A stretch of 64,000 nt of DNA from Candidatus Dormiibacterota bacterium (GCA_003162415.1 PMOL01000011.1:408853-472852); one strand, 5' to 3'. Positions 5,304 to 20,333 are shown, counted from the stretch's first letter. Notes: generated by a model not told the origin, from the letters alone. Translations and numbers: made by a program.

Positions 5304-5367
5304 CCCGTGTTCCTCGTGTACGGCTCCGCCTCGGGCGATGCCGCGTGCTGCTAGTGGGACGTCGACG

Positions 5368-5439
5368 CTCCGGGTACTGGATTCGAACCAGTGGCCTTGC
5401 GGTTAACAGCCGCCTGCTCTACCGCTGAGCTAACCCGGA
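5368..5439 (-). tRNA. tRNA-Asn (GTT), CCA not encoded
   Basis: Reverse complement TCCGGGTTAGCTCAGCGGTAGAGCAGGCGGCTGTTAACCGCAAGGCCACTGGTTCGAATCCAGTACCCGGAG folds as a cloverleaf with anticodon loop CTGTTAA. Confidence 0.97.
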
Positions 5440-8729: not shown

Positions 8730-9494
8730 CTAGCGGCTGAAGAACCAGCGGCGGCGCCTGCCCGCGACGTCCTGCGCGTCGGGCGAGCCGGCTTCGAGAT
8801 CGCTGATGCGACGATCGCGGTCGGCGAGGCGGCGATCCTTCTCGGCCTGGGCAGCCGCATGTTCGGCGCGAGCGGTCTGCAACTCCAGCTGGAGTTGCTT
8901 GACGAGGTTCTGACGGGAGTTCAGCTCCGCCTCGAACCGTTGCCGCTGCTCGGAATAGATGCGTTGCTCGAGGGTCCGCTCCCAGCGGTCGAGGAGACCG
9001 GCGACGAGCTCGCGCGGATCGAGCGAGGTCATCGAGGCCACATCGCGACGCGGCTCGTTCGAGCCGATCTCGATCATCGCTCCGCCCCGACCATGGGCGG
9101 TCGGCGCCTCGGCGGCGAGCTCCTCAGCAGGTGACGGAACGACCTTGTCGGGCCACGACGAGGGCTGTGCGGTGCCGACCACGTCGACGCTGGAGGAAAG
9201 GCCAACCGGTCCCTCGTCATCGAGCGCGGGTGGCGGGGGCGGGGCCGGGGCAGCGGCAGCATTCGTCATCGGGCTCTCGATGCCGAGGTCGCCGAGGCGG
9301 ACCAGGTACCGAACGCCGTCCGGACCTTCCTCGCGTCGCGAGGGGACGTCGCCCGCTTCGACACGCCGAAGCAGGATACCGAGCGGGAGATCCAACCTTT
9401 GCGCCACTTCCTCCACGGGAAGGTATGGCTCGGCACCCGGCACGGTAGTGGTGGCTGCGGGCATGGGTGTCTGCGGCCAGGACATCGCCATCAA
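8730..9494 (-). CDS. HTH-like N-terminus + Pro-rich linker + coiled coil, ending RRRRWFFSR
   Basis: YLPVEEVAQRLDLPLGILLRRVEAGDVPSRR resembles a MerR/excisionase-type HTH; C-terminal heptad-rich EQRQRFEAELNSRQNLVKQLQLELQTARAEH. Confidence 0.6.
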   Translation of the reverse strand: MMAMSWPQTPMPAATTTVPGAEPYLPVEEVAQRLDLPLGILLRRVEAGDVPSRREEGPDGVRYLVRLGDLGIESPMTNAAAAPAPPPPPALDDEGPVGLSSSVDVVGTAQPSSWPDKVVPSPAEELAAEAPTAHGRGGAMIEIGSNEPRRDVASMTSLDPRELVAGLLDRWERTLEQRIYSEQRQRFEAELNSRQNLVKQLQLELQTARAEHAAAQAEKDRRLADRDRRISDLEAGSPDAQDVAGRRRRWFFSR

Positions 9495-9552
9495 GAGTAG
9501 GCGAAACGGTATATGCCGTGGGGAATCGCCGGCGATCCGTTACCCGGTGAGG

Positions 9553-9819
9553 CTAGCGTCCAACGACCTCGATCGCGTACTTCGAGTTGTCGGTGAGCAA
9601 CACGATGCCACCGAGTTGCTCGGTGATCACCGCGCGAACCGGTGATGTTGCGAACACCTCCGGTGCGTCCGCATGTTCGGTCACGGTGCGACGCACCGCA
9701 TAGGGCATTCCGGGTGTTGGCGGCGATAGCTCATCGCCTTCGACGACGTGACCGTCGTCGAGCATCTCGGGACGGCCGTTCCGCGTCGCGATCTTGCGGA
9801 TCCGAACGTGCTCGGTCAA
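9553..9819 (-). CDS. Small hypothetical beta-rich protein
   Basis: 88-aa ORF with TTG start about 10 nt after GGAGG; co-oriented with its neighbours; no family recognised. Confidence 0.5.
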   Translation of the reverse strand: MTEHVRIRKIATRNGRPEMLDDGHVVEGDELSPPTPGMPYAVRRTVTEHADAPEVFATSPVRAVITEQLGGIVLLTDNSKYAIEVVGR

Positions 9820-9936
9820 CCGGGTATCGCCTCCATATCAGTGGAGCGTAGCGATACGCACGGGTTGAAGGTCATTCGGGCGGCGTGGTGTACCCATAGA
9901 ACAGGGGTTCGCCAGGAAAGGCGCGCGCCGGGTCGC

Positions 9937-12687
9937 TCAGCGGTCTCGCTCCACCTGTGCCAGACGCGCATGCGCTGCCGCCATGCGCGCGGCGGGAACG
10001 CGGAACGGCGAGCAGGAGACGTAATCGAGTCCCAGCTCCTCGCAGAGTGCGATGGAGTCGGCGTCGCCGCCGTGCTCGCCACAGATGCCTACGCTCAAGG
10101 ATGGCCGCACGGCTCGGCCCTCGTCGACGGCAAACTTCATGAGCCGTCCGATCCCATCTCGATCAAGGGTCTCGAAGGGATTGCGCGGCAGGATCTTCTC
10201 CTCCACGTAGCGCAGGAGGAACTTGCCCTCCGCGTCGTCACGCGAGACCCCGAAGGTCATCTGCGTCAGGTCGTTGGTGCCGAAGGAGAAGAAGTCGGCG
10301 GACTGCGCGATCTGTCCGGCGGTCAGCGCAGCGCGCGGTACCTCGATCATGGTGCCGACCAGGTACGACACTTTCGTCTTGGTCTCCTTGAAGACCTCCT
10401 GCGCGACCCGGTCGATCACCTCGCGAGTCCTGCGCAACTCCTCGAGCGTTCCGACCAGCGGCACCATGATTTCCGGGCGCACGTCGATGCGCTCCTTCTT
10501 GAGGCTGACCGCGGCCTCGATGATCGCGCGCGTCTGCATCTCGATGATTTCGGGAAAAAGAAGACCGAGCCGGCAACCGCGGAGTCCGAGCATCGGGTTC
10601 TGCTCGTGCAGGCTCTGCACCTCGGCGAGCAGCCTCACCTTGTCGCGGTACGACTTTTCCGGCTTGCCGAGCGCCTGGGCGCGCGTCACCTCGACGAGGA
10701 GCTCCTCGAGGGATGGCAGGAATTCGTGCAACGGCGGATCGATGAGCCGGATGATCACCGGCAATCCGTGCATCGCCTTGAGGATTCCGTGGAAGTCATC
10801 GCGTTGCATCGGGAGCAGCTTCGCCAGCTCGACGCGGCGTTCCTTCTCGTTGGGCGCAAGGATCATCTTCTGCACGATGGGAAGCCGTTCCTGCTGCATG
10901 AACATGTGCTCGGTGCGGCAGAGCCCGATGCCCTGCGCGCCGAACTCGCGCGCACGCACCGCGTCGTGCGGGTAGTCGCCGTTCGCCCACACCTGCAGGC
11001 GCCGGAAGGTATCCGCCCAGCGCAGGATCTCCTCGAGCTCGCCCGAGATTTCGGCGTCGAGCATGGGAACCTGCCCCTGGATGACGTTGCCCGTGGAGCC
11101 GTCGATCGTGAAGGGCTCTCCCTCCTTGATCTTCGTCCCGCCGGCGGTGAACTGGCGCTTGACCAGGTCGACCTGCACCGTCTCGGCGCCGGCGACGCAG
11201 GGCTTTCCCATGCCTCTCGCCACCACTGCGGCGTGCGAGGTCCGGCCGCCCCGTGAGGTGAGCACTCCTTCTGCGGCGATCATGCCGTGCACGTCGTCCG
11301 GGTTGGTCTCGATGCGCACGAGGATGACCTTCTCGCCCTTCTTGGCCATCGTCTCGGCGCGGTCCGCGTCGAACACCGCCTTGCCATAGGCAGCACCCGG
11401 GGACGCGGCGAGTCCGGTTGCGAGCACATGGATCTTCGCCTTCGGATCGATGCGTCGATGCAGGAGTTGATCGACCTGTCCCGGCTCGACGCGGAGCACC
11501 GCCTCGCGCTTGGTGATGAGCCGCTCGCGCACCATGTCGACGGCGATCTTCACCGCGGCCTCGGCGGTGCGCTTCCCACTGCGCGTCTGCAGCATGTACA
11601 GCTTGCCGCGCTCGATGGTGAACTCCATGTCCTGCACATCGCGATAGTGCTTCTCGAGCTTGCGCGCGATCTGCTCGAATTGCTTGTACGCCTTGGGAAG
11701 ATCGGTTGCCATCGCGGCGATCGGCTTCGGCGTGCGGATGCCTGCGACCACATCCTCACCCTGCGCGTTGGTGAGGTACTCGCCGTACAGCTTCTTCTCG
11801 CCGGTCGAAGGATCGCGCGTGAAGGCGACACCGGTCCCAGAGTCGTCACCCATGTTCCCGAAGACCATCGACTGGACGTTAACCGCGGTGCCGAGATCGT
11901 GGGGAATGCGGTTGTAGTTGCGATAGTCGGTTGCGCGCTTGTTGTTCCACGACTCGAACACAGCCCCGATCGCGGCCCGCAACTGGGCCATCGGATCCTC
12001 GGGAAACCCCGTACGTGAATGTCGCTTGACGATCGAGCGGTACTCGACGATCAGCTCCTCGAGCGCCGGTGCGGTGAGATCCGCGTCGGTCTTCGCCTTC
12101 TTGCGCTTCTTGATCCCGTCGAGCGCTTCCTCGAAGAGCTGACCGTCAATGCCAAGCACGATCTTGCTGAACAGCTGGATGAAGCGTCGGTGCGCGTCGA
12201 GCGCGAAACGCCGGTCCTTGGTGAGCGCCGCCAGTCCCTCGAGCGTCGCCGAGTTGAGACCGAGGTTGAGCACCGTGTCCATCATCCCGGGCATCGAGAA
12301 TTTCGCGCCGCTGCGAACGCTGACGAGGAGCGGATTGCGCGGGTCGCCAAAACCCTTGCCGGTGGCTTTCTCGACCACCTTGAGCGACTTCTCGACCTGC
12401 TCCCAGAGTCCCTCCGGGAACTTCGCGCCGCGCGCATAGAAGGCGTTGCACGCCTCGGTGGTGATCGTGAAGCCGGGAGGGACCGGGAGCCCCGCGCGCG
12501 TCATCTCGGCAACACCGGCGCCCTTGCCACCGAGCAGATCGCGCATCGAGGCACTGCCTTCGTCGAAGCGATACACCCACTTGTGGGCGCGAGGCCGCAC
12601 GGCGACGCTCCGCTTCGACCCGCCGCGAGCGGCGGTGGTGCGCGACCACGTTTTCGACGACTTCGTGCCCCGGGTGCTTACCGCCAT
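9937..12687 (-). CDS. ppdK: Pyruvate, phosphate dikinase
   Basis: LLGGKGAG, PVPPGFTITT, VSVRSGAKFSMPGMMDTVLNLG, GGRTSHAAVVARG (phospho-His), GIGLCRTEHMF, FFSFGTNDLTQ. Start set at ATG 12687. Confidence 0.98.
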   Translation of the reverse strand: MAVSTRGTKSSKTWSRTTAARGGSKRSVAVRPRAHKWVYRFDEGSASMRDLLGGKGAGVAEMTRAGLPVPPGFTITTEACNAFYARGAKFPEGLWEQVEKSLKVVEKATGKGFGDPRNPLLVSVRSGAKFSMPGMMDTVLNLGLNSATLEGLAALTKDRRFALDAHRRFIQLFSKIVLGIDGQLFEEALDGIKKRKKAKTDADLTAPALEELIVEYRSIVKRHSRTGFPEDPMAQLRAAIGAVFESWNNKRATDYRNYNRIPHDLGTAVNVQSMVFGNMGDDSGTGVAFTRDPSTGEKKLYGEYLTNAQGEDVVAGIRTPKPIAAMATDLPKAYKQFEQIARKLEKHYRDVQDMEFTIERGKLYMLQTRSGKRTAEAAVKIAVDMVRERLITKREAVLRVEPGQVDQLLHRRIDPKAKIHVLATGLAASPGAAYGKAVFDADRAETMAKKGEKVILVRIETNPDDVHGMIAAEGVLTSRGGRTSHAAVVARGMGKPCVAGAETVQVDLVKRQFTAGGTKIKEGEPFTIDGSTGNVIQGQVPMLDAEISGELEEILRWADTFRRLQVWANGDYPHDAVRAREFGAQGIGLCRTEHMFMQQERLPIVQKMILAPNEKERRVELAKLLPMQRDDFHGILKAMHGLPVIIRLIDPPLHEFLPSLEELLVEVTRAQALGKPEKSYRDKVRLLAEVQSLHEQNPMLGLRGCRLGLLFPEIIEMQTRAIIEAAVSLKKERIDVRPEIMVPLVGTLEELRRTREVIDRVAQEVFKETKTKVSYLVGTMIEVPRAALTAGQIAQSADFFSFGTNDLTQMTFGVSRDDAEGKFLLRYVEEKILPRNPFETLDRDGIGRLMKFAVDEGRAVRPSLSVGICGEHGGDADSIALCEELGLDYVSCSPFRVPAARMAAAHARLAQVERDR

Positions 12688-12813
12688 TCGCCAGACCTCA
12701 TCGTTGTAGTGGATGCGCGCGAGAATGCGCCACGCAAGGCGTGAGCGTAGCATCGGGCCGCCACAACGCCGAACGGCCGCGAGCGCTGCCGCACCCGGGG
12801 CGGACGAACCCGG

Positions 12814-13134
12814 TTACTTGGCCTTCGCGGAGGGCTTCTTCGGGGAGTGGTGTGCCTTGAGCTTGTGCCACTCGGCGCGCTTCGGCGGCTTGGTGACTCC
12901 CGCTTTGTGGAGCGCCGGACCCAGGCGCGACTTCATGAAATCGTCCTGGTCGTCCTGGGTCTCCCAGACCTCGACAACGATCCAGTTGCCGCCACTCGAA
13001 CCGGCCGTGTGGGTGTGGAGTCCCGCCGGCCAATCGCCTTCGCCAGTCTCGCCGTTGACGCCCAGATCCGCGTTGACGGCGTCGTAGTCCGCGGCTGTGA
13101 GTCCCTCGAACTCGAGGATCAACAGTTCAGCCAT
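12814..13134 (-). CDS. Small dimeric alpha-beta-barrel (ABM-like) hypothetical protein
   Basis: GLHTHTAG...WIVVEVWETQDDQDDFM pattern typical of ABM/YciI-type ferredoxin folds; GGGAGAG SD upstream. Confidence 0.65.
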   Translation of the reverse strand: MAELLILEFEGLTAADYDAVNADLGVNGETGEGDWPAGLHTHTAGSSGGNWIVVEVWETQDDQDDFMKSRLGPALHKAGVTKPPKRAEWHKLKAHHSPKKPSAKAK

Positions 13135-13203
13135 CTCTCTCTCCCGTGGGGGGTGTGGGCCCAGCGTGTGGGCCCGCGGATCATGCCAGATGCGCCTGGG
13201 CGC

Positions 13204-14214
13204 TTACAGGATGAGCATGGCGTCCCCGAACTCGTGCCAGAGGTAGCGGCGCTCGCGCACCTCGGCATAGGCGCGTTCCAGCAACCTCGTGTCGAGCAGG
13301 GCGCCAAGCATGTCGAGATGCGTTGCGGGGGGCTCGTGCAGCCCGGTGAGCAGTGCGTCGACAACGTGAAGACGCGTCTGCGGCGTGATGACCAGCCGGG
13401 TCCAGCCGTTCACGGGCTGCACATGACCGTTGCCGTCAACCGCGGTCTCCAGCGTGCGGATGACGCTGGTGCCGACGGCGATCACCCGAGACGCTCGGTT
13501 GATGCACTCGGCGGCGTCCTCACGGACCGCGAAGCGCTCTTCGATGAGTGGCTTGTCCATGTCGACGTCGTCGTCCTGGAACGAGCTCAGCCCGCAGTGA
13601 AGGACGATGTCGGTCACGTCGACCCCGTGGCGGCGCAGTTCGCTGAGCAGCTCCCAGGTCAGGTGGCGCCCGGCCGACGGAGTCTCGACGGAGCCGGGAG
13701 CACCCGCATAGACAGTCTGGTAGTGCTCGAGTGGAACCGGGTCGGGCACGTACGAGTAGCGGATCGGCTCGCCGTCACTGAGCAGCGTCTGCACCGGGTC
13801 GCCGCTTTCGACGGCCATGCGCCAGAGCAGTGGCGCGTCTGCACGTGGTTCGAGGACGCGGAAGCTGAGCCCACCCGGGGCGCGCAGCGTCTCGCCGCGC
13901 TCGAGCGGGACGTTGCGATGCGGCGGCGCGGTTTCCACCGCGAGCGCGTCCCACTCGCCGTTGCGGAGCGCGCCAGGGCGGAGTTGCACAGGCTCGGCGC
14001 CCTCTCGATCGACCCGCAGCGCCGCGGGCAGTGTCCGGCTTGAATTGACGACGAGCAGATCGCCGGATGCGAGGTACTCGCCGAGGTGAGCGACCGACGT
14101 GTGGGTGATCCGACCCGTTTCCCGTTCCACGACGCAGAGCCGCGCACCGTCGCGACGCATGCCCCGCAGCTCGGCGGGAAGCGACGCGCGCAGTTCGCGG
14201 GGCGGGGAGATCAC
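13204..14214 (-). CDS. QueA-like protein (S-adenosylmethionine:tRNA ribosyltransferase-isomerase family, divergent paralog)
   Basis: GDLLVVNSSRTLPA, YQTVYA, VIAVGTSVIRTLE, LLTGLHEP, GDAMLI are QueA-family motifs, but several canonical active-site motifs are altered (see findings). Confidence 0.85.
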   Translation of the reverse strand: MISPPRELRASLPAELRGMRRDGARLCVVERETGRITHTSVAHLGEYLASGDLLVVNSSRTLPAALRVDREGAEPVQLRPGALRNGEWDALAVETAPPHRNVPLERGETLRAPGGLSFRVLEPRADAPLLWRMAVESGDPVQTLLSDGEPIRYSYVPDPVPLEHYQTVYAGAPGSVETPSAGRHLTWELLSELRRHGVDVTDIVLHCGLSSFQDDDVDMDKPLIEERFAVREDAAECINRASRVIAVGTSVIRTLETAVDGNGHVQPVNGWTRLVITPQTRLHVVDALLTGLHEPPATHLDMLGALLDTRLLERAYAEVRERRYLWHEFGDAMLIL

Positions 14215-14927
14215 GCGAGGCTCGCCGCTTCGATCCGATCGGCTGTAGGAAGACGCCCCACCAGCAGCGTGAGCAGCCGCTCGGCCACATCCTCAGGACG
14301 GAGCAGGTCCGCGGGGTTGGCCTCCGGGTCCGCGGCCATGTGCATTGCCGTGTGCATGTCGCCGGGGTCGACACTGATCACGCGCACCTGGGTGCGTTGC
14401 AACTCCGCCGACCAGCTCCGGGTCAGGGCGTCGAGCGCCGCCTTGGAGGCGCTGTAGAGGCCGAGGCCCTCGAACCCGATCAGCGCCGCGTCGGTGCTGA
14501 TGTTGACGACGAGCCCGTGGTTGCGCAGGAGCATCCCGCCGATGACCGCCTGGGTGAGGCGCAGGGGTCCGAGGACATTGGCCTGCAGGACGTGCTCCAG
14601 GGCGCTCGACGGCGCATCGGTGAGCTGCGGCAACGGCAGTGGGCCGAGCTCCGCAGCGTTGTTCACAAGAACGTCGACGCCCCCGAAGCGCTCCAGCGCG
14701 GTGGCCGCGAACCGCTCGACGTCGGTTGCGTCGGCGAGGTCGGCGAGCACCGCAAGCACCTCGACGTTGAGCCCGCGACATTCTTCCGCGACGGCTTCGA
14801 GCGCCTCTCCTCCGCGTGCGCAGACCGCGAGCGTCGCGCCCTCGCGGGCTGCGGCTCGAGCGAGCGCCCGCCCCAGGCCTCGTGAGGCACCGGTGATCAT
14901 CACCGTTGTTCCGGACAGTGTTCCCAT
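14211..14927 (-). CDS. Short-chain dehydrogenase/reductase
   Basis: TGASRGLG, DVLVNNA, YSASK catalytic motif; 4-nt overlap with the QueA-like start. Confidence 0.92.
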   Translation of the reverse strand: MGTLSGTTVMITGASRGLGRALARAAAREGATLAVCARGGEALEAVAEECRGLNVEVLAVLADLADATDVERFAATALERFGGVDVLVNNAAELGPLPLPQLTDAPSSALEHVLQANVLGPLRLTQAVIGGMLLRNHGLVVNISTDAALIGFEGLGLYSASKAALDALTRSWSAELQRTQVRVISVDPGDMHTAMHMAADPEANPADLLRPEDVAERLLTLLVGRLPTADRIEAASLA

Positions 14928-15006
14928 GGGCTCAATCCTGCGCGCGCCGCGGGCCGAGCGCATCCGCCGGACGCCGCAGTCGCGGGTCCGTCATTCGGCG
15001 GACCCC

Positions 15007-15642
15007 TTAGTCCACCAGGCCCTCGCGGATGGCGAGGACGGCGGCCTGGGTCCGGTCCTCCACGCCCAGCTTGGCGAGAACGCGGCTCACGTGGGTCTTG
15101 ATCGTCTTCTCGCCGATGCCGAGCCGCTGGGCGATCTGCTTGTTGGCCAGCCCTTCGACCACCAGGGCGAGGACGTCGCGCTCGCGGGCGGTGAGATCGC
15201 TGTGGGTGGGGCGCTGCGAGCCGCCTCGGCGCATCAGCCGCGCCGCGACCGAGGGATCGAGTGCTGGACGCCCGGCATGCACGTCCCGAATCCCGTCGGC
15301 GAGAGCCTGCGGGTCGACGTCCTTGAGCAGGTATCCGGCCGCGCCGGCCGCCATCGCCGCGAAGATCTGCGCGTCGTCCGCGAAGCTGGTGAGCACGAGC
15401 ACACGCACGCCGGGAGCGACTTCGAGCAACCGGCGGACGGCCCCGATCCCGTCACCCCGGGGCATCACCAGGTCGAGGAGGATCACATCGGGCGCCGACG
15501 TGCTCGCGACCGTGATGGCTTCATCCGCACCGGCAGCCTCGCCGACCACCTCGATGCCGTCCTGAAGGCGCAGAAACGCCCGGAGGCCCTCGCGAACCAC
15601 CGAGTGGTCGTCGACGATGAGCAAGCGGATGGGTGCACTCAT
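15007..15642 (-). CDS. NarL/LuxR-family response regulator
   Basis: LIVDDH, DVILLDLVMP (phospho-Asp), VLTSF, GYLLKD, LTARERDVL...NKQIA...TIKTHVSRVLAKL. Confidence 0.93.
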   Translation of the reverse strand: MSAPIRLLIVDDHSVVREGLRAFLRLQDGIEVVGEAAGADEAITVASTSAPDVILLDLVMPRGDGIGAVRRLLEVAPGVRVLVLTSFADDAQIFAAMAAGAAGYLLKDVDPQALADGIRDVHAGRPALDPSVAARLMRRGGSQRPTHSDLTARERDVLALVVEGLANKQIAQRLGIGEKTIKTHVSRVLAKLGVEDRTQAAVLAIREGLVD

Positions 15643-15646
15643 CGCC

Positions 15647-16768
15647 TCATTCTCTCGGCAGGCTCGCGGTGACGGTGGTCCCGCGGCCTGGACCGGTGCG
15701 GATGTCGAGGCGAGCGCCGATCTCCTGTGCGCGTTCGCGCATGGACACGAGCCCCATCCCGCGCCGGGTGCGCGGCAACGCCTGCAGGTCGAAACCCGGA
15801 CCGTCGTCGCGTATGCGCAGACTCACGGTCTTCGCGCCGGCGCGCAGGGTCACGCGCACTGACGATTCCGGAGCGTGACGCATCGCGTTGTTAAGCGCTT
15901 CCTGTGCGATTCGCAGCAGCGCGTGTTCGGTCTCCAGCGGGAGATGGATGCCCTCCGACGCGTCGACGACGACGCGCGCACCGCTGCTGCGCAACGCCTC
16001 GGCGTGGTCGGCGAGGGTTGCGGCAAGGCCGTCGCGCTCGAGGCTCTTGGGGCGGAGCGCATGCACCAGTCCGCGCAGCTCCTGCAATGCGGATGTGGTT
16101 CGCCGCTCGAATCCCAGGATGGTGTTGCGCGCCTCCTCGTCGCGGGTCGAGAGCGCCGCCGCCCTGGCGGCGAGCACCAGGCTGAACAGCGTCTGCGTCG
16201 CGGCATCGTGCAGCTCGCGCGCGACCCGGTTGCGCTCCTCGATGACCGCAAGCCGTTGCGATTGCGCGTAGAGCTCGGCGTTTGCGATCGCGACACCCGC
16301 ATATGCTGCAAGAGTTTCCAGCCGGCGCGCGTCCGTCATCGTGAAGTGGCCGGAATGGTGTCCGCTGACGAAGAGGTTGCCGCGGACCGCACCCCGGTGC
16401 TTGATCGGCACTCCGAGGAAGTCGGTGAGCGTCGGGTGGTGAGCAGGGTAGTACGAGAAGCGAGGGTGCTCCCGGATGTCGTCGAGCAGGATCGGGCCTT
16501 CTTCGAGCAGGGCGCCGAGCACGCCGTGCGTGCGTGGCAACTCTCCGATGGTGGCCGCCACCCGCTCACTGATCCCCGAGGTCACGAAGCGCGCGAAGCC
16601 GCCGCGACCGTCTGGCACCCCGATGGCGCCATATCGGGCCGAGACCTGGCGGCGCGCGGCTCGGACGATCCGCTCGAGCACCGTGTCGAGGTCCGGTGCG
16701 TCACCGAGGGCGAGCAGGTCGAGCACACCGGCAGCCACCGCATCGGTGTCGCTGCGAGCACTCACCAC
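15647..16768 (-). CDS. Soluble GAF-domain sensor histidine kinase (HisKA_3)
   Basis: GAF with HP...HHP...FLGVPI, ERNRVARELHDAATQ (phospho-His), QEALNNAMRHA, DDGPGFD, GMGLVSMRER; no TM segment. Confidence 0.9.
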   Translation of the reverse strand: MVSARSDTDAVAAGVLDLLALGDAPDLDTVLERIVRAARRQVSARYGAIGVPDGRGGFARFVTSGISERVAATIGELPRTHGVLGALLEEGPILLDDIREHPRFSYYPAHHPTLTDFLGVPIKHRGAVRGNLFVSGHHSGHFTMTDARRLETLAAYAGVAIANAELYAQSQRLAVIEERNRVARELHDAATQTLFSLVLAARAAALSTRDEEARNTILGFERRTTSALQELRGLVHALRPKSLERDGLAATLADHAEALRSSGARVVVDASEGIHLPLETEHALLRIAQEALNNAMRHAPESSVRVTLRAGAKTVSLRIRDDGPGFDLQALPRTRRGMGLVSMRERAQEIGARLDIRTGPGRGTTVTASLPRE

Positions 16769-16774
16769 GTCGTG

Positions 16775-18190
16775 CTACCCGTCGTGCCCGCCGTTGGCAC
16801 GCTCACGCGCTCGCTGGCGGCCCGCTTCGAGCTGATCGTGCAGCGCAGCATGGAGTCCGTCGATCGGCACGCGTACCTGGGTCATGCCGTCGCGCTCGCG
16901 GATGGTCACCGAGTGGTCGTTCAGCGAGTCGAAGTCGAAGGTGATCGCCAGCGGCGTGCCGATCTCGTCCTGACGGCGATAGCGACGGCCGATCGCCTGG
17001 GTCTCGTCGTAGATGGTCGAGAATTGGGAGCGCAGGTCGTGCTCGATGCGACGCGCCGGTTCGATGAGCTCCGCCTTCTTGGACAGGGGCAACACCGCGA
17101 CCTGCACCGGTGCCACGTCCGGGTGGAGATGCAGCACCACACGCTTCTCACCGCGCACCTCCTCCTCGTCATACGCATCGACCAGGAGCGTGATGAAGAT
17201 GCGGTCGGTGCTCACCGCGGGCTCGATGACGTAGGGGATGTACCGCTCGTTGGTCTCGGGGTCGAAGTATGAGAGGTCGCGTCCGCTGTGCTCCATATGA
17301 GTCTTCAGGTCGAAGTCGGTGCGATCCGCGACTCCTTCGAGCTCGCCCCACCCGAACGGATATCGATACTCGATGTCGCTGGTTGCGGTGCTGTAGTGGG
17401 ACAGCTCCTCCTTCGCATGCGGGCGGAGGCGGAGATTCTCCTTAAGCACGCCCATGGTCTCGACATGCCAGTTGAACCGCTCCGCGCACCAGTACTCATG
17501 CAGCTCCAGGTCGCTCCCCGGCTTGCAGAAGTACTCCATCTCCATCAGCTCGAACTCGCGCAGGCGAAAGACGAAGTTACCCGGGGAGATCTCGTTGCGA
17601 AATCCCTTGCCCTGCTGTGCGATACCGAAGGGCAGGCGGCGGCGTGTCGAGTTGACCACGTTGGCAAAGTTGACGAACATGCCCTGTGCCGTCTCCGGGC
17701 GGAGCCAGATCTGCGCGGCGTCCTCCTCGACCGGACCGATGAACGTCTTGAACATGAGGTTGAACTGCCGGGCGGGGGTGAGCTCGCCGCCGCATTCCGG
17801 ACAGCCCGACGCATCAGGCGGCTTGCCGCGGGCGCGCCGCTCGTCGGCAAGGTGGTCTGCGCGCCAGCGCTTCTTGCACGGCCCGAGGCAATCGACCAGT
17901 GGATCGGTGAAGCCTGCAACGTGACCGCTGGCGACCCACACCTCGGGGTTCATGAGGATCGCGCTTTCGATGCCCTCGACGTCATCACGCAGCTCGACCA
18001 TCGACGCCCACCAGCGCTCCCGGATGTTGCGGCGCAGCCGCACTCCCAGGGGCCCGAAGTCGTAGACGGCGTTGAGGCCACCGTAGATCTCGCTCGACGG
18101 GTAGACGAACCCGCGCTGCTTGCACAGCGAGACGAGCTTCTCGATGACGTCCGATTGCGCCCGGTCCTGCTGTGTCTGCTCCTGGGCCAT
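16775..18190 (-). CDS. glyS: Glycine--tRNA ligase, homodimeric (alpha2) type
   Basis: SSEIYGG...YDFGPLG, LRPETAQG, FRNEISP, FRLREFE, YRRQDEIGTP anticodon-binding domain. Confidence 0.96.
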   Translation of the reverse strand: MAQEQTQQDRAQSDVIEKLVSLCKQRGFVYPSSEIYGGLNAVYDFGPLGVRLRRNIRERWWASMVELRDDVEGIESAILMNPEVWVASGHVAGFTDPLVDCLGPCKKRWRADHLADERRARGKPPDASGCPECGGELTPARQFNLMFKTFIGPVEEDAAQIWLRPETAQGMFVNFANVVNSTRRRLPFGIAQQGKGFRNEISPGNFVFRLREFELMEMEYFCKPGSDLELHEYWCAERFNWHVETMGVLKENLRLRPHAKEELSHYSTATSDIEYRYPFGWGELEGVADRTDFDLKTHMEHSGRDLSYFDPETNERYIPYVIEPAVSTDRIFITLLVDAYDEEEVRGEKRVVLHLHPDVAPVQVAVLPLSKKAELIEPARRIEHDLRSQFSTIYDETQAIGRRYRRQDEIGTPLAITFDFDSLNDHSVTIRERDGMTQVRVPIDGLHAALHDQLEAGRQRARERANGGHDG

Positions 18191-18196
18191 GGCCGG

Positions 18197-18973
18197 TCAG
18201 TCTACCGGCACCCTCACGGCACCCCGCCCTTCGATCGCCCGAAGCACGTCGATCGATCGCAGCCGTCGATCGAGGTGATGAGCCAGCTCGGACTCCACGA
18301 TGCGCTCGAGTGTCTGGAGCGTGGCGGTGTCGAGCCGCAGGTGGAGCCAGAGCTCCTCATCGCCGTCCGCGGCGGCGCGCAGCACCTTGATAACACGCAC
18401 CGCGCACTCCACCCCTTCGGGATCGCCGGGGGCGCAGCGCGCGCAGAGGAGACCGCCACCCGGGGCACTGAACCAGGCCATCTCCTCGGGGAGGCGCCGC
18501 TCGCAGCTCGCGCAGTCGATGAGCTGTGGTGCATAGCCGAGCCGGTCCACCATCCGGCGAGCGAACCACACGATCGCGGCGCGCGGATCCCGTTCCGGGT
18601 CGGCGCATGCCGTCAGCGCGCTCGCCACGAGCGCGTAGATCTCCGGGTCAGCATGGTGGCTCTCGAGAACGCGGTCGGTCAGCTCGGCGCACAACGAGGC
18701 GCACGCCGCACGCCGTGCGTCACTCCGCAGCGGGGTTGCTGCGACCGTCTCCGCCTGGGTGAGCACATCGAGCTCGCCGCGCCCGCGCGCGAGCTGCATG
18801 CGGCTGCGCGTGAACAGGTCAGTGCGCGACGCGAGCCGGCTCTGACTTTTGCGCACGCCACGTGCGATGACCCCGATCTTGCCGTGCTCGAGCGTCAGCA
18901 CGGTGAGAATGCGGTCCGCCTCGCCGTAGTCGATGCGTCGCAGCACGATTCCCTCGTCGCTGTAGGTCGGCAT
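18197..18973 (-). CDS. recO: DNA repair protein RecO
   Basis: Start MPTYSDEGIVLRRIDYGEADRILTVLTLEHGKIGVIARGVRKS, Zn-finger CASC...LLCARC, ELAHHLDRRLRS. Confidence 0.93.
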   Translation of the reverse strand: MPTYSDEGIVLRRIDYGEADRILTVLTLEHGKIGVIARGVRKSQSRLASRTDLFTRSRMQLARGRGELDVLTQAETVAATPLRSDARRAACASLCAELTDRVLESHHADPEIYALVASALTACADPERDPRAAIVWFARRMVDRLGYAPQLIDCASCERRLPEEMAWFSAPGGGLLCARCAPGDPEGVECAVRVIKVLRAAADGDEELWLHLRLDTATLQTLERIVESELAHHLDRRLRSIDVLRAIEGRGAVRVPVD

Positions 18974-18989
18974 CCGACCATCATGCGCA

Positions 18990-20333
18990 CTACTGGTGGC
19001 GAGCGTGCGCCGGCGACTCCTCCTGGGTGTCCCGGGCCTCCTGCTGACCCTCGTGGTCGGTGGCGCGAACCGCGCGGTCTCGTACCAGCGGGACCGGGCT
19101 GGTGATGCGCACGGATTGGATCCCCTGGCGCCGGATCGACTCGACGGTGAGCGTCGCGTCCCCGAGCTGGATGGTCGCACCGACCTTGGGAATCTCGCCG
19201 AGCAACTCGTAGACCAGTCCGCCGACGGTATCGGCTTCGACGGTGGGAACCGGGAGATCGAGCTCCTCCTTGAGGTCATCCACCGGGAACCGGGCGCTGA
19301 CCACCACCTCGTGGTCCGAGATGATCTGCAGCTCCTCGACCTCGCGCATGTCGTACTCGTCGCGGATCGGCCCGACGATCTCCTCGATGAGGTCCTCGAA
19401 GGTGACGATGCCGGCGGTCCCACCGTGCTCATCGACGACCACCGCGATGTGCACCTTGCGCTCCTTCATCTCGCGCAGCAGCTCGCCAACTCGCTTCGCC
19501 TCAGGCGTGTAGTACGGCTCGCGCGCGATCGCCTTGAGCGGGCGCTGATCGTCACCAACCACGCCGTGGCGCAACAGGTCCTTCGCGTACACGACACCGA
19601 CGATGTTGTCGACGTTGTCCTCGTAGATGGGGATGCGCGAGAACCCGAACTCGATGATCACCTTGATCACGTCGGCGATCGAGTCGGTCGCCTCGACCGC
19701 GACGATGTCGACGCGCGGGACCATGACCTCGCGGACCAGCTTGTCGGTCATCTCGAGGATGCCGTGGATCATCTCGCGCTCCTCCTGCTCGACGATCCCC
19801 TCCTGTTCGCCGACGTAGAGGAGCAGCTTCAACTCCTCCTCGGTGACGAACGGGCCGCGCACGGTATGGCCCCGGGTGGCAGCGCGCACGATCAGGCGCG
19901 ACATCGCGCTCAGCCCGCCGATCAGCGGGCGAAGCACTCGGGTGAGGAACTGGACCGGGCCCGCGAGCACCAGGGCGAATCGCTCGTTGAATCGGAGCGC
20001 GAGCGATTTCGGCGCGATCTCGCAAAAGATCAGGACCAGGATAGAGAGGACGATGGTGCCGACGGCCTGCGGGATTTTCGTGAGATAGCCGGTGATCAAC
20101 AACGCCGTGGCCGTCGAGACCACGATGACCGCGACCGTGTTCAGGGTGAGGATGGTCGACAGATAGGCGTTCGGGTCCGCGTGCAGGCGCGTCACCGTTC
20201 GGGCGCGCTTGTTGCCGTCTTCTGCCAGGCTCCGCATCCGTATTCTGCTGACGCTCGTCAGCGAGGTCTCCGCCGCCGCCGCAAACGCGGCAATGACGAG
20301 GCCGAGGACGATGACGATGATGAGAGGGGTCAT
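18990..20333 (-). CDS. Hemolysin-family CNNM (DUF21)-CBS-CorC membrane protein
   Basis: AAAETSLTS, FCEIAPKSLA, VREVMVPRVD, FSRIPIYE...DNIVGVVYAKD, VVDEHGGTAGIVTFEDLIEEIVGPIRDEYD. Confidence 0.92.
   Translation of the reverse strand: MTPLIIVIVLGLVIAAFAAAAETSLTSVSRIRMRSLAEDGNKRARTVTRLHADPNAYLSTILTLNTVAVIVVSTATALLITGYLTKIPQAVGTIVLSILVLIFCEIAPKSLALRFNERFALVLAGPVQFLTRVLRPLIGGLSAMSRLIVRAATRGHTVRGPFVTEEELKLLLYVGEQEGIVEQEEREMIHGILEMTDKLVREVMVPRVDIVAVEATDSIADVIKVIIEFGFSRIPIYEDNVDNIVGVVYAKDLLRHGVVGDDQRPLKAIAREPYYTPEAKRVGELLREMKERKVHIAVVVDEHGGTAGIVTFEDLIEEIVGPIRDEYDMREVEELQIISDHEVVVSARFPVDDLKEELDLPVPTVEADTVGGLVYELLGEIPKVGATIQLGDATLTVESIRRQGIQSVRITSPVPLVRDRAVRATDHEGQQEARDTQEESPAHARHQ

Follow-up and report, generated by a model that had tools for sequence, protein, structure and literature searches.

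A queuosine-independent QueA paralog paired with a short-chain dehydrogenase/reductase beside redox sensors in Dormibacterota and other lineages

To describe a candidate pathway in a 64,000-nucleotide (nt) stretch of DNA from a Candidatus Dormiibacterota bacterium (GCA_003162415.1, PMOL01000011.1:408853-472852; hereafter the window), we combined an open reading frame (ORF) listing with Pfam and NCBIfam scans. Five co-oriented genes were found on the minus strand at 12814-16768, as a first-pass annotation made from the sequence alone had described. They encode a soluble sensor histidine kinase of 373 amino acids (aa) with Pfam GAF_2, HisKA_3 and HATPase_c domains (15647-16768; the GAF domain, residues 25-170, is of the DosT/DevS type), a NarL/LuxR-family response regulator of 211 aa with Response_reg and GerE domains (15007-15642), a classical NAD(P)-dependent short-chain dehydrogenase/reductase (SDR) of 238 aa (14211-14927; adh_short PF00106, 167.6 bits), a QueA-like protein of 336 aa with a GTG start (13204-14214; PF02547, 232.9 bits) and a small protein of 106 aa with a predicted ABM fold and without significant Pfam or NCBIfam match (12814-13134). 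The regulator gene begins 4 nt past the kinase stop codon, and a conserved hairpin on the same strand (GGGTCCGCC-GAAT-GACGGACCC, 14984-15005) lies directly 3' of the regulator stop codon. The 4-nt overlap reported between the SDR and QueA-like genes was seen directly in the sequence, where the SDR stop codon and the GTG start share GTGA (...GCGTGATC...). The longest SDR ORF extends to 14963. Since an AGGA Shine-Dalgarno sequence and the ATGGGAAC start at 14927 are common to the Dormibacteria loci and the upstream ATG is not conserved (about 40 loci aligned), the SDR most likely starts at the ATG at 14927, as predicted from this alignment. The five-gene stretch is flanked by genes for glycyl-tRNA synthetase (16775-18190) and pyruvate phosphate dikinase (9937-12753).

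The QueA-like protein matched PF02547 (Queuosine_synth) over its full length (residues 5-335, against a cut-off of 25 bits), but it missed both NCBIfam QueA equivalog cut-offs (NF001140, 182.1 against 324; TIGR00113, 147.1 against 267.45). When an AF2 model of the protein was searched with Foldseek, the matches were the QueA structures 1vky, 1yy3 and 1wdi only (E 1e-17 to 9e-19), and the next match had E > 0.01. Compared with characterised QueA (EC 2.4.99.17; 1VKY, 1YY3, 1WDI), the protein thus belongs to the same family at about 30% identity and, in the predicted model, has the same two-domain fold, an alpha/beta domain with an inserted beta-barrel (Foldseek E 9e-19).

The genome is a Dormibacterota metagenome-assembled genome (MAG) of 3.69 Mb from a soil bacterium, about 90% complete. 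A canonical queA (361 bits in Pfam), directly followed by tgt, was found on another contig, C20. The genes queC and queF are also present, and tgt, queA, queC and queF are spread over contigs C20, C1 and C15. On contig C11, which holds the window, tgt, a second queA, queC and queF were absent (queD, queE, queG and queH were not searched), which bears out, for the genes searched, the earlier statement that tgt and other que genes are missing from the window. Since the canonical queA-tgt pair, queC and queF stand elsewhere in the genome, the window gene is a second QueA-family copy. A search run exhaustively over 1.84 billion representatives returned 9,656 QueA-family matches, the best 150 of which were mostly of the paralog type. 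In a tree of 160 sequences, 133 paralogs formed one side of a branch with 98% support and 22 canonical sequences formed one side of a branch with 99% support; the window protein fell outside the canonical group. The PF02547 scores were bimodal without overlap, both in Chloroflexota (at least 351 bits against at most 277) and in Actinomycetota (canonical at least 359, paralogs at most 269). A copy scoring 205-277 bits was present in 24 of 121 Chloroflexota genomes, about a fifth, and the paralog occurred in about 52 of 201 evenly sampled Actinomycetota species, about a quarter. These results demonstrate that the window gene is a second, divergent QueA-family copy belonging to a distinct and large clade. 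As a separate observation, one locus (L094:1116-2976) and a Joint Genome Institute contig carry a third, intermediate QueA branch with the motifs TNFHGPRSSR and YQFYEFGD. Its gene is overlapped by one for a luciferase-like monooxygenase and stands beside sulfotransferase and ATP-grasp genes, so that the locus looks like a small-molecule biosynthetic cluster.

The occurrence of the paralog was then compared with that of the queuosine genes. In 13 genomes the paralog is the sole PF02547 gene, and all 13 lacked TGT, QueC and QueF; they comprise seven cultured Nocardioides, Blastococcus and Modestobacter isolates, several Actinomycetota MAGs and two Limnocylindria. Likewise, 39 of the 43 paralog-only genomes in the sample of 201 Actinomycetota species lacked TGT, and canonical queA came with tgt. 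The pair of SDR and QueA paralog genes, with the 4-nt overlap, was also present on metagenomic contigs with archaeal genes (L099:5336-7020, also L100 and L101), where the flanks hold exosome (Rrp41/Rrp42/Rrp4), SBDS, proteasome and Rad50/Mre11/HerA genes. To our knowledge, the QueA family is usually described as limited to bacteria. Taken together, these distributions demonstrate that the paralog clade works independently of the Tgt/QueC/QueF (7-deazaguanine) pathway. In the Actinomycetota we also noted TGT matches of a separate class, scoring about 360-425 bits against 440-553 for the queA-adjacent tgt, in 11 genomes without canonical queA. This class resembles a Corynebacterium control and may represent a salvage-type or otherwise specialised Tgt.

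The departures from the canonical QueA motifs listed in the first-pass annotation were exact in the window protein, which has PIRYSYV where canonical QueA has PLPPYI, GSVETPSAGRHL in place of GSxAAPTAGLHF, LHCGLSSF in place of LHVGLGTF and YLWHEFGD in place of YRFYSFGD. The same changes are fixed throughout the paralog clade and are not random drift: PLPPYI became PIRYxYV, GSxAAPTAGLHFT became GSAEMPSAGRxFT, LHVGxGTF became LHxGxSS, TNFHLPxSTLL became TGxHEPxASHL and YRFYSFGD became YLWHEFGD, and all five canonical signature motifs are replaced by the clade versions in the QueA-like protein. In the alignment, 35 positions were common to the paralog and canonical clades, including YQT, G174, P179-A181, AVGT..R.LE, H293 and GD, and 16 were clade-specific switches in the signature loops, including A177E, L183R, N291G, L299H, S328E, F326W and the change of PLPP to PIRY. 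The paralog signature residues were near-invariant across four phyla. The two clades also differ in charge: the paralogs are acidic (median isoelectric point (pI) 6.2, net charge -5; the window protein, pI 5.4 and charge -13), whereas the canonical set of 22 sequences, mostly from Chloroflexota, is basic (median pI 8.7, net charge +2).

Conservation of the neighbourhood was examined across the lineages. The SDR gene lies directly upstream of the QueA-like gene in all Dormibacteria loci, and likewise in about 23 of 25 Actinomycetota loci, in 12 of another 13 loci from Chloroflexota (a contig end truncates the remaining one), in a third subclade, on the archaeal contigs and on three Rhizobium plasmids; the 4-nt overlap recurs often among these loci. 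On one metagenomic contig (L096:793-2562), a single 589-aa ORF fuses an SDR (residues 3-193) to a QueA paralog (residues 263-588) and a glyoxalase gene is adjacent, although this fusion comes from one contig in one run and a sequencing error is possible. An all-against-all comparison of ORFs around the pair in Actinomycetota found only the SDR and QueA-like genes conserved, with soxR in a subset, and the first downstream ORFs there matched no Pfam family except for one cyclic nucleotide (cNMP)-binding protein. The five genes had been put forward as one neighbourhood; the linkage of SDR and QueA-like genes held across phyla and in the one fusion, but the five-gene unit did not. The conserved unit is two genes, SDR and QueA-like, and the SDR is the obligate partner of the QueA-like gene.

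The SDR itself carries TGASRGLG, NNAA, NIST, S..YSASK and DPGDMHT. With classical SDR ketoreductases (actinorhodin ketoreductase 2RHR, FabG) it shares TGxxxGxG, NNAx, the Ser-Tyr-Lys residues and PG, with best PDB E-values of about 1e-28. It differs from them in that it reaches no characterised subfamily, every NCBIfam match being below its cut-off, and in that the cassette SDRs form an orthologous group of their own, 39-59% identical across phyla, that accompanies the QueA paralog. Between the window SDR and the one encoded next to soxR on the R. etli plasmid p42f, identity is 39%, and the two share NNAxxLGPxPL, NISxDAA, YxASKAAL and DPGDMxT.

The small protein had been called ABM-like, a claim that stood at the level of the fold and failed at that of the Pfam family. 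Its AF2 model (predicted local distance difference test score, pLDDT, 91) shows a ferredoxin-like beta-alpha-beta-beta-alpha-beta arrangement, and its top Foldseek matches were members of the ABM family (4dn9, E 4e-5, template modelling score 0.62), but its score against Pfam ABM was 14.9 bits, below the cut-off of 23.1 (E 0.032). It is linked to the cassette only within Dormibacteria. We rejected it as a member of the pathway, since its homologs at 50-60% identity sit in unrelated contexts, and it is probably not part of the core module.

We next considered the two regulatory genes of the window. The GAF domain of the kinase is related to the haem-binding GAF-A domains of the M. tuberculosis sensors DosT (2vzw, E 4e-29) and DevS (2w3d, E 8e-28; 2y79) at about 45% identity, and the proximal haem-ligating histidine is kept (AHHPTL against LHHPPM and PYHPPM). 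From this comparison it is plausible that the GAF domain binds haem, and the signal of the kinase is likely to be O2, NO, CO or redox state. The best solved relatives of the regulator, which is presumed to be the partner of the kinase, were VraR (5hev, 1.5e-52) and DevR/DosR (3c3w, 1.3e-46). Like the DevS(DosS)/DosT-DevR(DosR) system of M. tuberculosis, the window system thus combines a GAF-A-like domain carrying the proximal histidine with a HisKA_3 core and a NarL-family partner. It departs from that system in that the regulator is slightly closer to VraR, with DevR as the second-best PDB match, and SDR and QueA-like genes are not among the known members of the DosR regulon.

The same haem-type GAF sensor adjoins the cassette in other loci of the Dormibacteria class. 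In two Limnocylindria loci (L042:4183-5136 and L043:3591-5183), the gene directly upstream of the SDR gene encodes a DosT-like GAF domain joined to what remains of a HisKA_3 domain and to a GerE/LuxR helix-turn-helix domain; this fusion is a one-component version of the two-component system of the window. Four Chloroflexota loci (L080, L081, L085, L090) have a different GAF-HisKA_3 kinase and a NarL regulator beside the cassette, and in the GAF domain of this kinase the haem histidine is missing and a TGxxCWC motif is conserved. The proposed link of the pair to a dedicated GAF kinase and NarL regulator was therefore upheld in Chloroflexota but not elsewhere, where SoxR (Actinomycetota and Rhizobium) or, in one metagenomic locus, an XRE-cupin regulator takes the place of the two-component system.

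The hairpin opens the 79-nt spacer ahead of the SDR gene, and its core TCCGCCGAATGRCGGA is kept in about 40 Dormibacteria loci. At the corresponding position in locus L041, the hairpin differs in sequence and has a GAAA loop; this makes a terminator-like RNA hairpin more probable than a site for protein binding. A pair of ACGCGC repeats downstream of it, before the SDR ribosome-binding site, is also conserved. Two further candidates were set aside. A riboswitch or another RNA element ahead of the cassette was rejected, as in 11 Actinomycetota loci every Rfam family stayed below its gathering score and the window at 9000-20000 offered no credible candidate. An anti-phage defence system was likewise rejected, as PADLOC recognised neither the two cassette proteins nor the small protein.

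Ten Actinomycetota loci carry, divergently oriented to the SDR gene, a gene of the MerR family whose product has the SoxR [2Fe-2S] motif CIGCGCLSxxxCxLxNP. The intervening spacer contains a classic soxbox promoter, in Blastococcus for example TTGACCTCAAGTTCACTTGAGGTCAGACGGTAGCCCCATG. In 13 Actinomycetota loci, including some without an adjacent soxR, soxbox-like sites (for example TTGACCTCAAGTTCACTTGAGGT) precede the SDR start by 30-60 nt; the background was 1.3% of random 260-nt windows. In the RefSeq annotation of three Rhizobium plasmids, soxR is divergent from genes annotated as 'SDR family oxidoreductase' and 'S-adenosylmethionine:tRNA ribosyltransferase-isomerase'. On the R. etli CFN42 plasmid p42f, where the cassette genes are RHE_RS29350 and RHE_RS29345, the soxR-SDR spacer contains ACTTCAAGTTAACTTGAACT and a redoxin gene follows the cassette. 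We know of no QueA-family gene reported in any SoxR regulon. Outside the enteric bacteria, SoxR regulons are small and consist of genes for oxidoreductases and ABM monooxygenases and for transporters of redox-active metabolites (PMC4146615). The Actinomycetota and Rhizobium cassettes resemble such regulons, exemplified by the six-gene regulon of S. coelicolor and that of P. aeruginosa (PMC4146615), in the divergent soxR with the CIGCGCLSxxxC motif, in the CCTCAAGTTNACTTGAGG-like soxbox inside the SDR promoter and in the presence of an oxidoreductase among the targets; the known targets also include ABM monooxygenases. The window differs from them in using a two-component system. These results demonstrate that the cassette has repeatedly been placed beside redox sensors, with the type of regulator varying by lineage.

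Given these findings, we consider it likely, though well short of certain, that the translationally coupled SDR and queuosine-independent QueA paralog form a response module for redox stress or redox-active compounds, which probably uses S-adenosylmethionine (SAM) and acts on a free substrate. Because the QueA scaffold and the residues shared across the family are kept, the paralog probably still uses SAM. By QueA-type chemistry, it would catalyse C5' deprotonation, loss of adenine, ribosyl transfer with isomerisation and release of methionine. The acceptor site would have been rebuilt (A177E, L183R, N291G, L299H, S328E, F326W and PLPP to PIRY), and this rebuilding, together with the lost tRNA-compatible positive charge, suggests that the paralog acts on a free, probably small, non-tRNA substrate. 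The SDR would contribute a redox step that directly precedes or directly follows the step of the paralog. Expression would be tied to redox sensing, by the DosT/DevS-like kinase and the NarL/DevR-type regulator here and by a divergent SoxR acting on a soxbox promoter in Actinomycetota and Rhizobium, and it is this association with redox sensors in several lineages that leads us to read the cassette as a redox module. We infer SAM use, the class of substrate, the order of the steps and control by the neighbouring sensors from homology and gene context. The first-pass proposal of a SAM-type paralog joined to an SDR and a signalling system thus survives in its separate canonical queA-tgt, its separate clade and its conserved SDR, and loses the five-gene unit.

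A bolder form of this reading can be offered only tentatively. The pair would carry out an undescribed reaction, only the second known to employ SAM as ribosyl donor, in which the SAM ribose is transferred to a free small molecule and carbocyclised, with an NAD(P)H-dependent step coupled to it. This reaction would serve a response to redox stress or redox-active compounds that is governed by SoxR or DosT-like sensors and widespread in Chloroflexota, Actinomycetota, Alphaproteobacteria and some archaea. More speculatively, the acceptor might be a reduced redox-cycling compound on which the SDR acts first, an order suggested by the order of the genes and of the domains in the fusion; equally speculatively, the pair might make a ribose-derived cyclopentane metabolite.

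Several observations weigh against the redox-module reading. Where DevS and DosT have a GAF-A/GAF-B tandem and the distal Tyr171, the window kinase has only one GAF domain, and Phe occupies the distal position (GNLFVS against GNLYLT). The hairpin stands between the regulator gene and the SDR gene, no binding site for the regulator was found there, and control of the cassette by the adjacent regulator is suggested by their conserved adjacency. The window contains no soxbox (CCTCAAGN4CTTGAGG, up to two mismatches), and its link to SoxR would run through homology of the cassette rather than through its own locus. For expression, two soil RNA runs yielded only short contigs of relatives (96% identity), which cover the QueA-like and kinase genes in part and may stem from carried-over DNA. 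The comparisons of charge and of switched positions drew on the small canonical set described above, and the AF2 model of the QueA-like protein is only moderately confident (pLDDT 73) and weakest precisely at the signature loops. Finally, the three QueA structures in the PDB are all apo forms and the SAM-binding residues of QueA are not known (PMC10491745), so it is family conservation that points to retained SAM chemistry.

Four other explanations were weighed, all of which the data on charge, distribution and context make less likely. It is unlikely, in our view, that the paralog modifies another macromolecule, such as an amine on another RNA, DNA or protein, with the SDR tailoring the attached carbocycle. 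The only known substrate of QueA is a nucleic acid, RNA and protein were among the substrates that the first-pass annotation had suggested, the cassette has no transporter or obvious small-molecule pathway genes, and the archaeal-contig copy lies among RNA-processing genes, which may be coincidence; but the paralog clade is acidic where canonical QueA is basic, the SDR, SoxR, redoxin, glyoxalase and XRE-cupin neighbours are typical of small-molecule redox metabolism, and no nucleic-acid-binding domain or modification gene is linked. A role in SAM housekeeping or damage control, in which a harmful sulfonium compound, for example inactive (R,S)-SAM, an analogue of SAM or S-ribosylmethionine, would be broken down or recycled by the pair with no external acceptor involved and the SDR would reduce a sugar-derived carbonyl, appears slightly less probable again. 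C5' deprotonation and adenine loss are the chemistry of spontaneous alkaline SAM decay. This is also the first half-reaction of QueA (mechanism summarised in PMC10491745), the intermediate aldehyde could be reduced by an SDR, and a sporadic two-gene cassette fits repair or detoxification. However, control by SoxR or DosT-like sensors has no obvious fit with such a role, and the gained charged residues (E177, R183, H299, E328) suggest a new ligand site rather than loss of the acceptor.

That the paralog has left SAM chemistry altogether, either by acting on another substrate with the QueA scaffold or by serving as a non-catalytic partner of the SDR, seems very unlikely. Changes affect several canonical motifs that are among the most conserved, and no ligand-bound QueA structure shows which residues matter, but the 35 positions still conserved between the clades speak against such a departure, and a signature near-invariant across four phyla is typical of an active enzyme. 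We hold it to be most improbable that the protein is a second, condition-specific tRNA QueA isozyme making epoxyqueuosine under hypoxia or redox stress. Its family membership and predicted fold are those of QueA, and its own genome has tgt, queC and queF and hence available preQ1-tRNA. Against this, orthologs with the same signature are the sole QueA-family gene in genomes without Tgt, QueC and QueF, one ortholog lies on an archaeal contig, the protein scores below the equivalog cut-offs, and the SDR, its obligate partner, plays no part in making queuosine.

Two further features of the window were noted. A tRNA-Asn(GTT) gene lies at 5367-5439. This tRNA is one of the four that are substrates for queuosine, and its presence in the same window as the QueA-like gene is probably incidental. 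Between 24001 and 30000, the AT skew swings from -0.256 (24-26 kb) to +0.247 (28-30 kb), a pattern suggestive of long genes that lie on opposite strands and have an unusual composition.

In the literature we found no paper on the QueA-paralog clade, only incidental mentions of the Pfam family or the corresponding COG. Reviews up to 2023 treat QueA as the only enzyme with SAM as ribosyl donor, and describe its mechanism and ligand binding as unresolved (PMC10491745, PMC9092360). The annotation of the paralog as 'S-adenosylmethionine:tRNA ribosyltransferase-isomerase' falsely implies a capacity for queuosine synthesis in genomes without any. Cultured and tractable carriers of the pair exist in Rhizobium etli CFN42, Nocardioides and Modestobacter. 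The clade suggests that there is SAM chemistry yet to be explored and that bacterial redox-stress regulons have a member so far overlooked.

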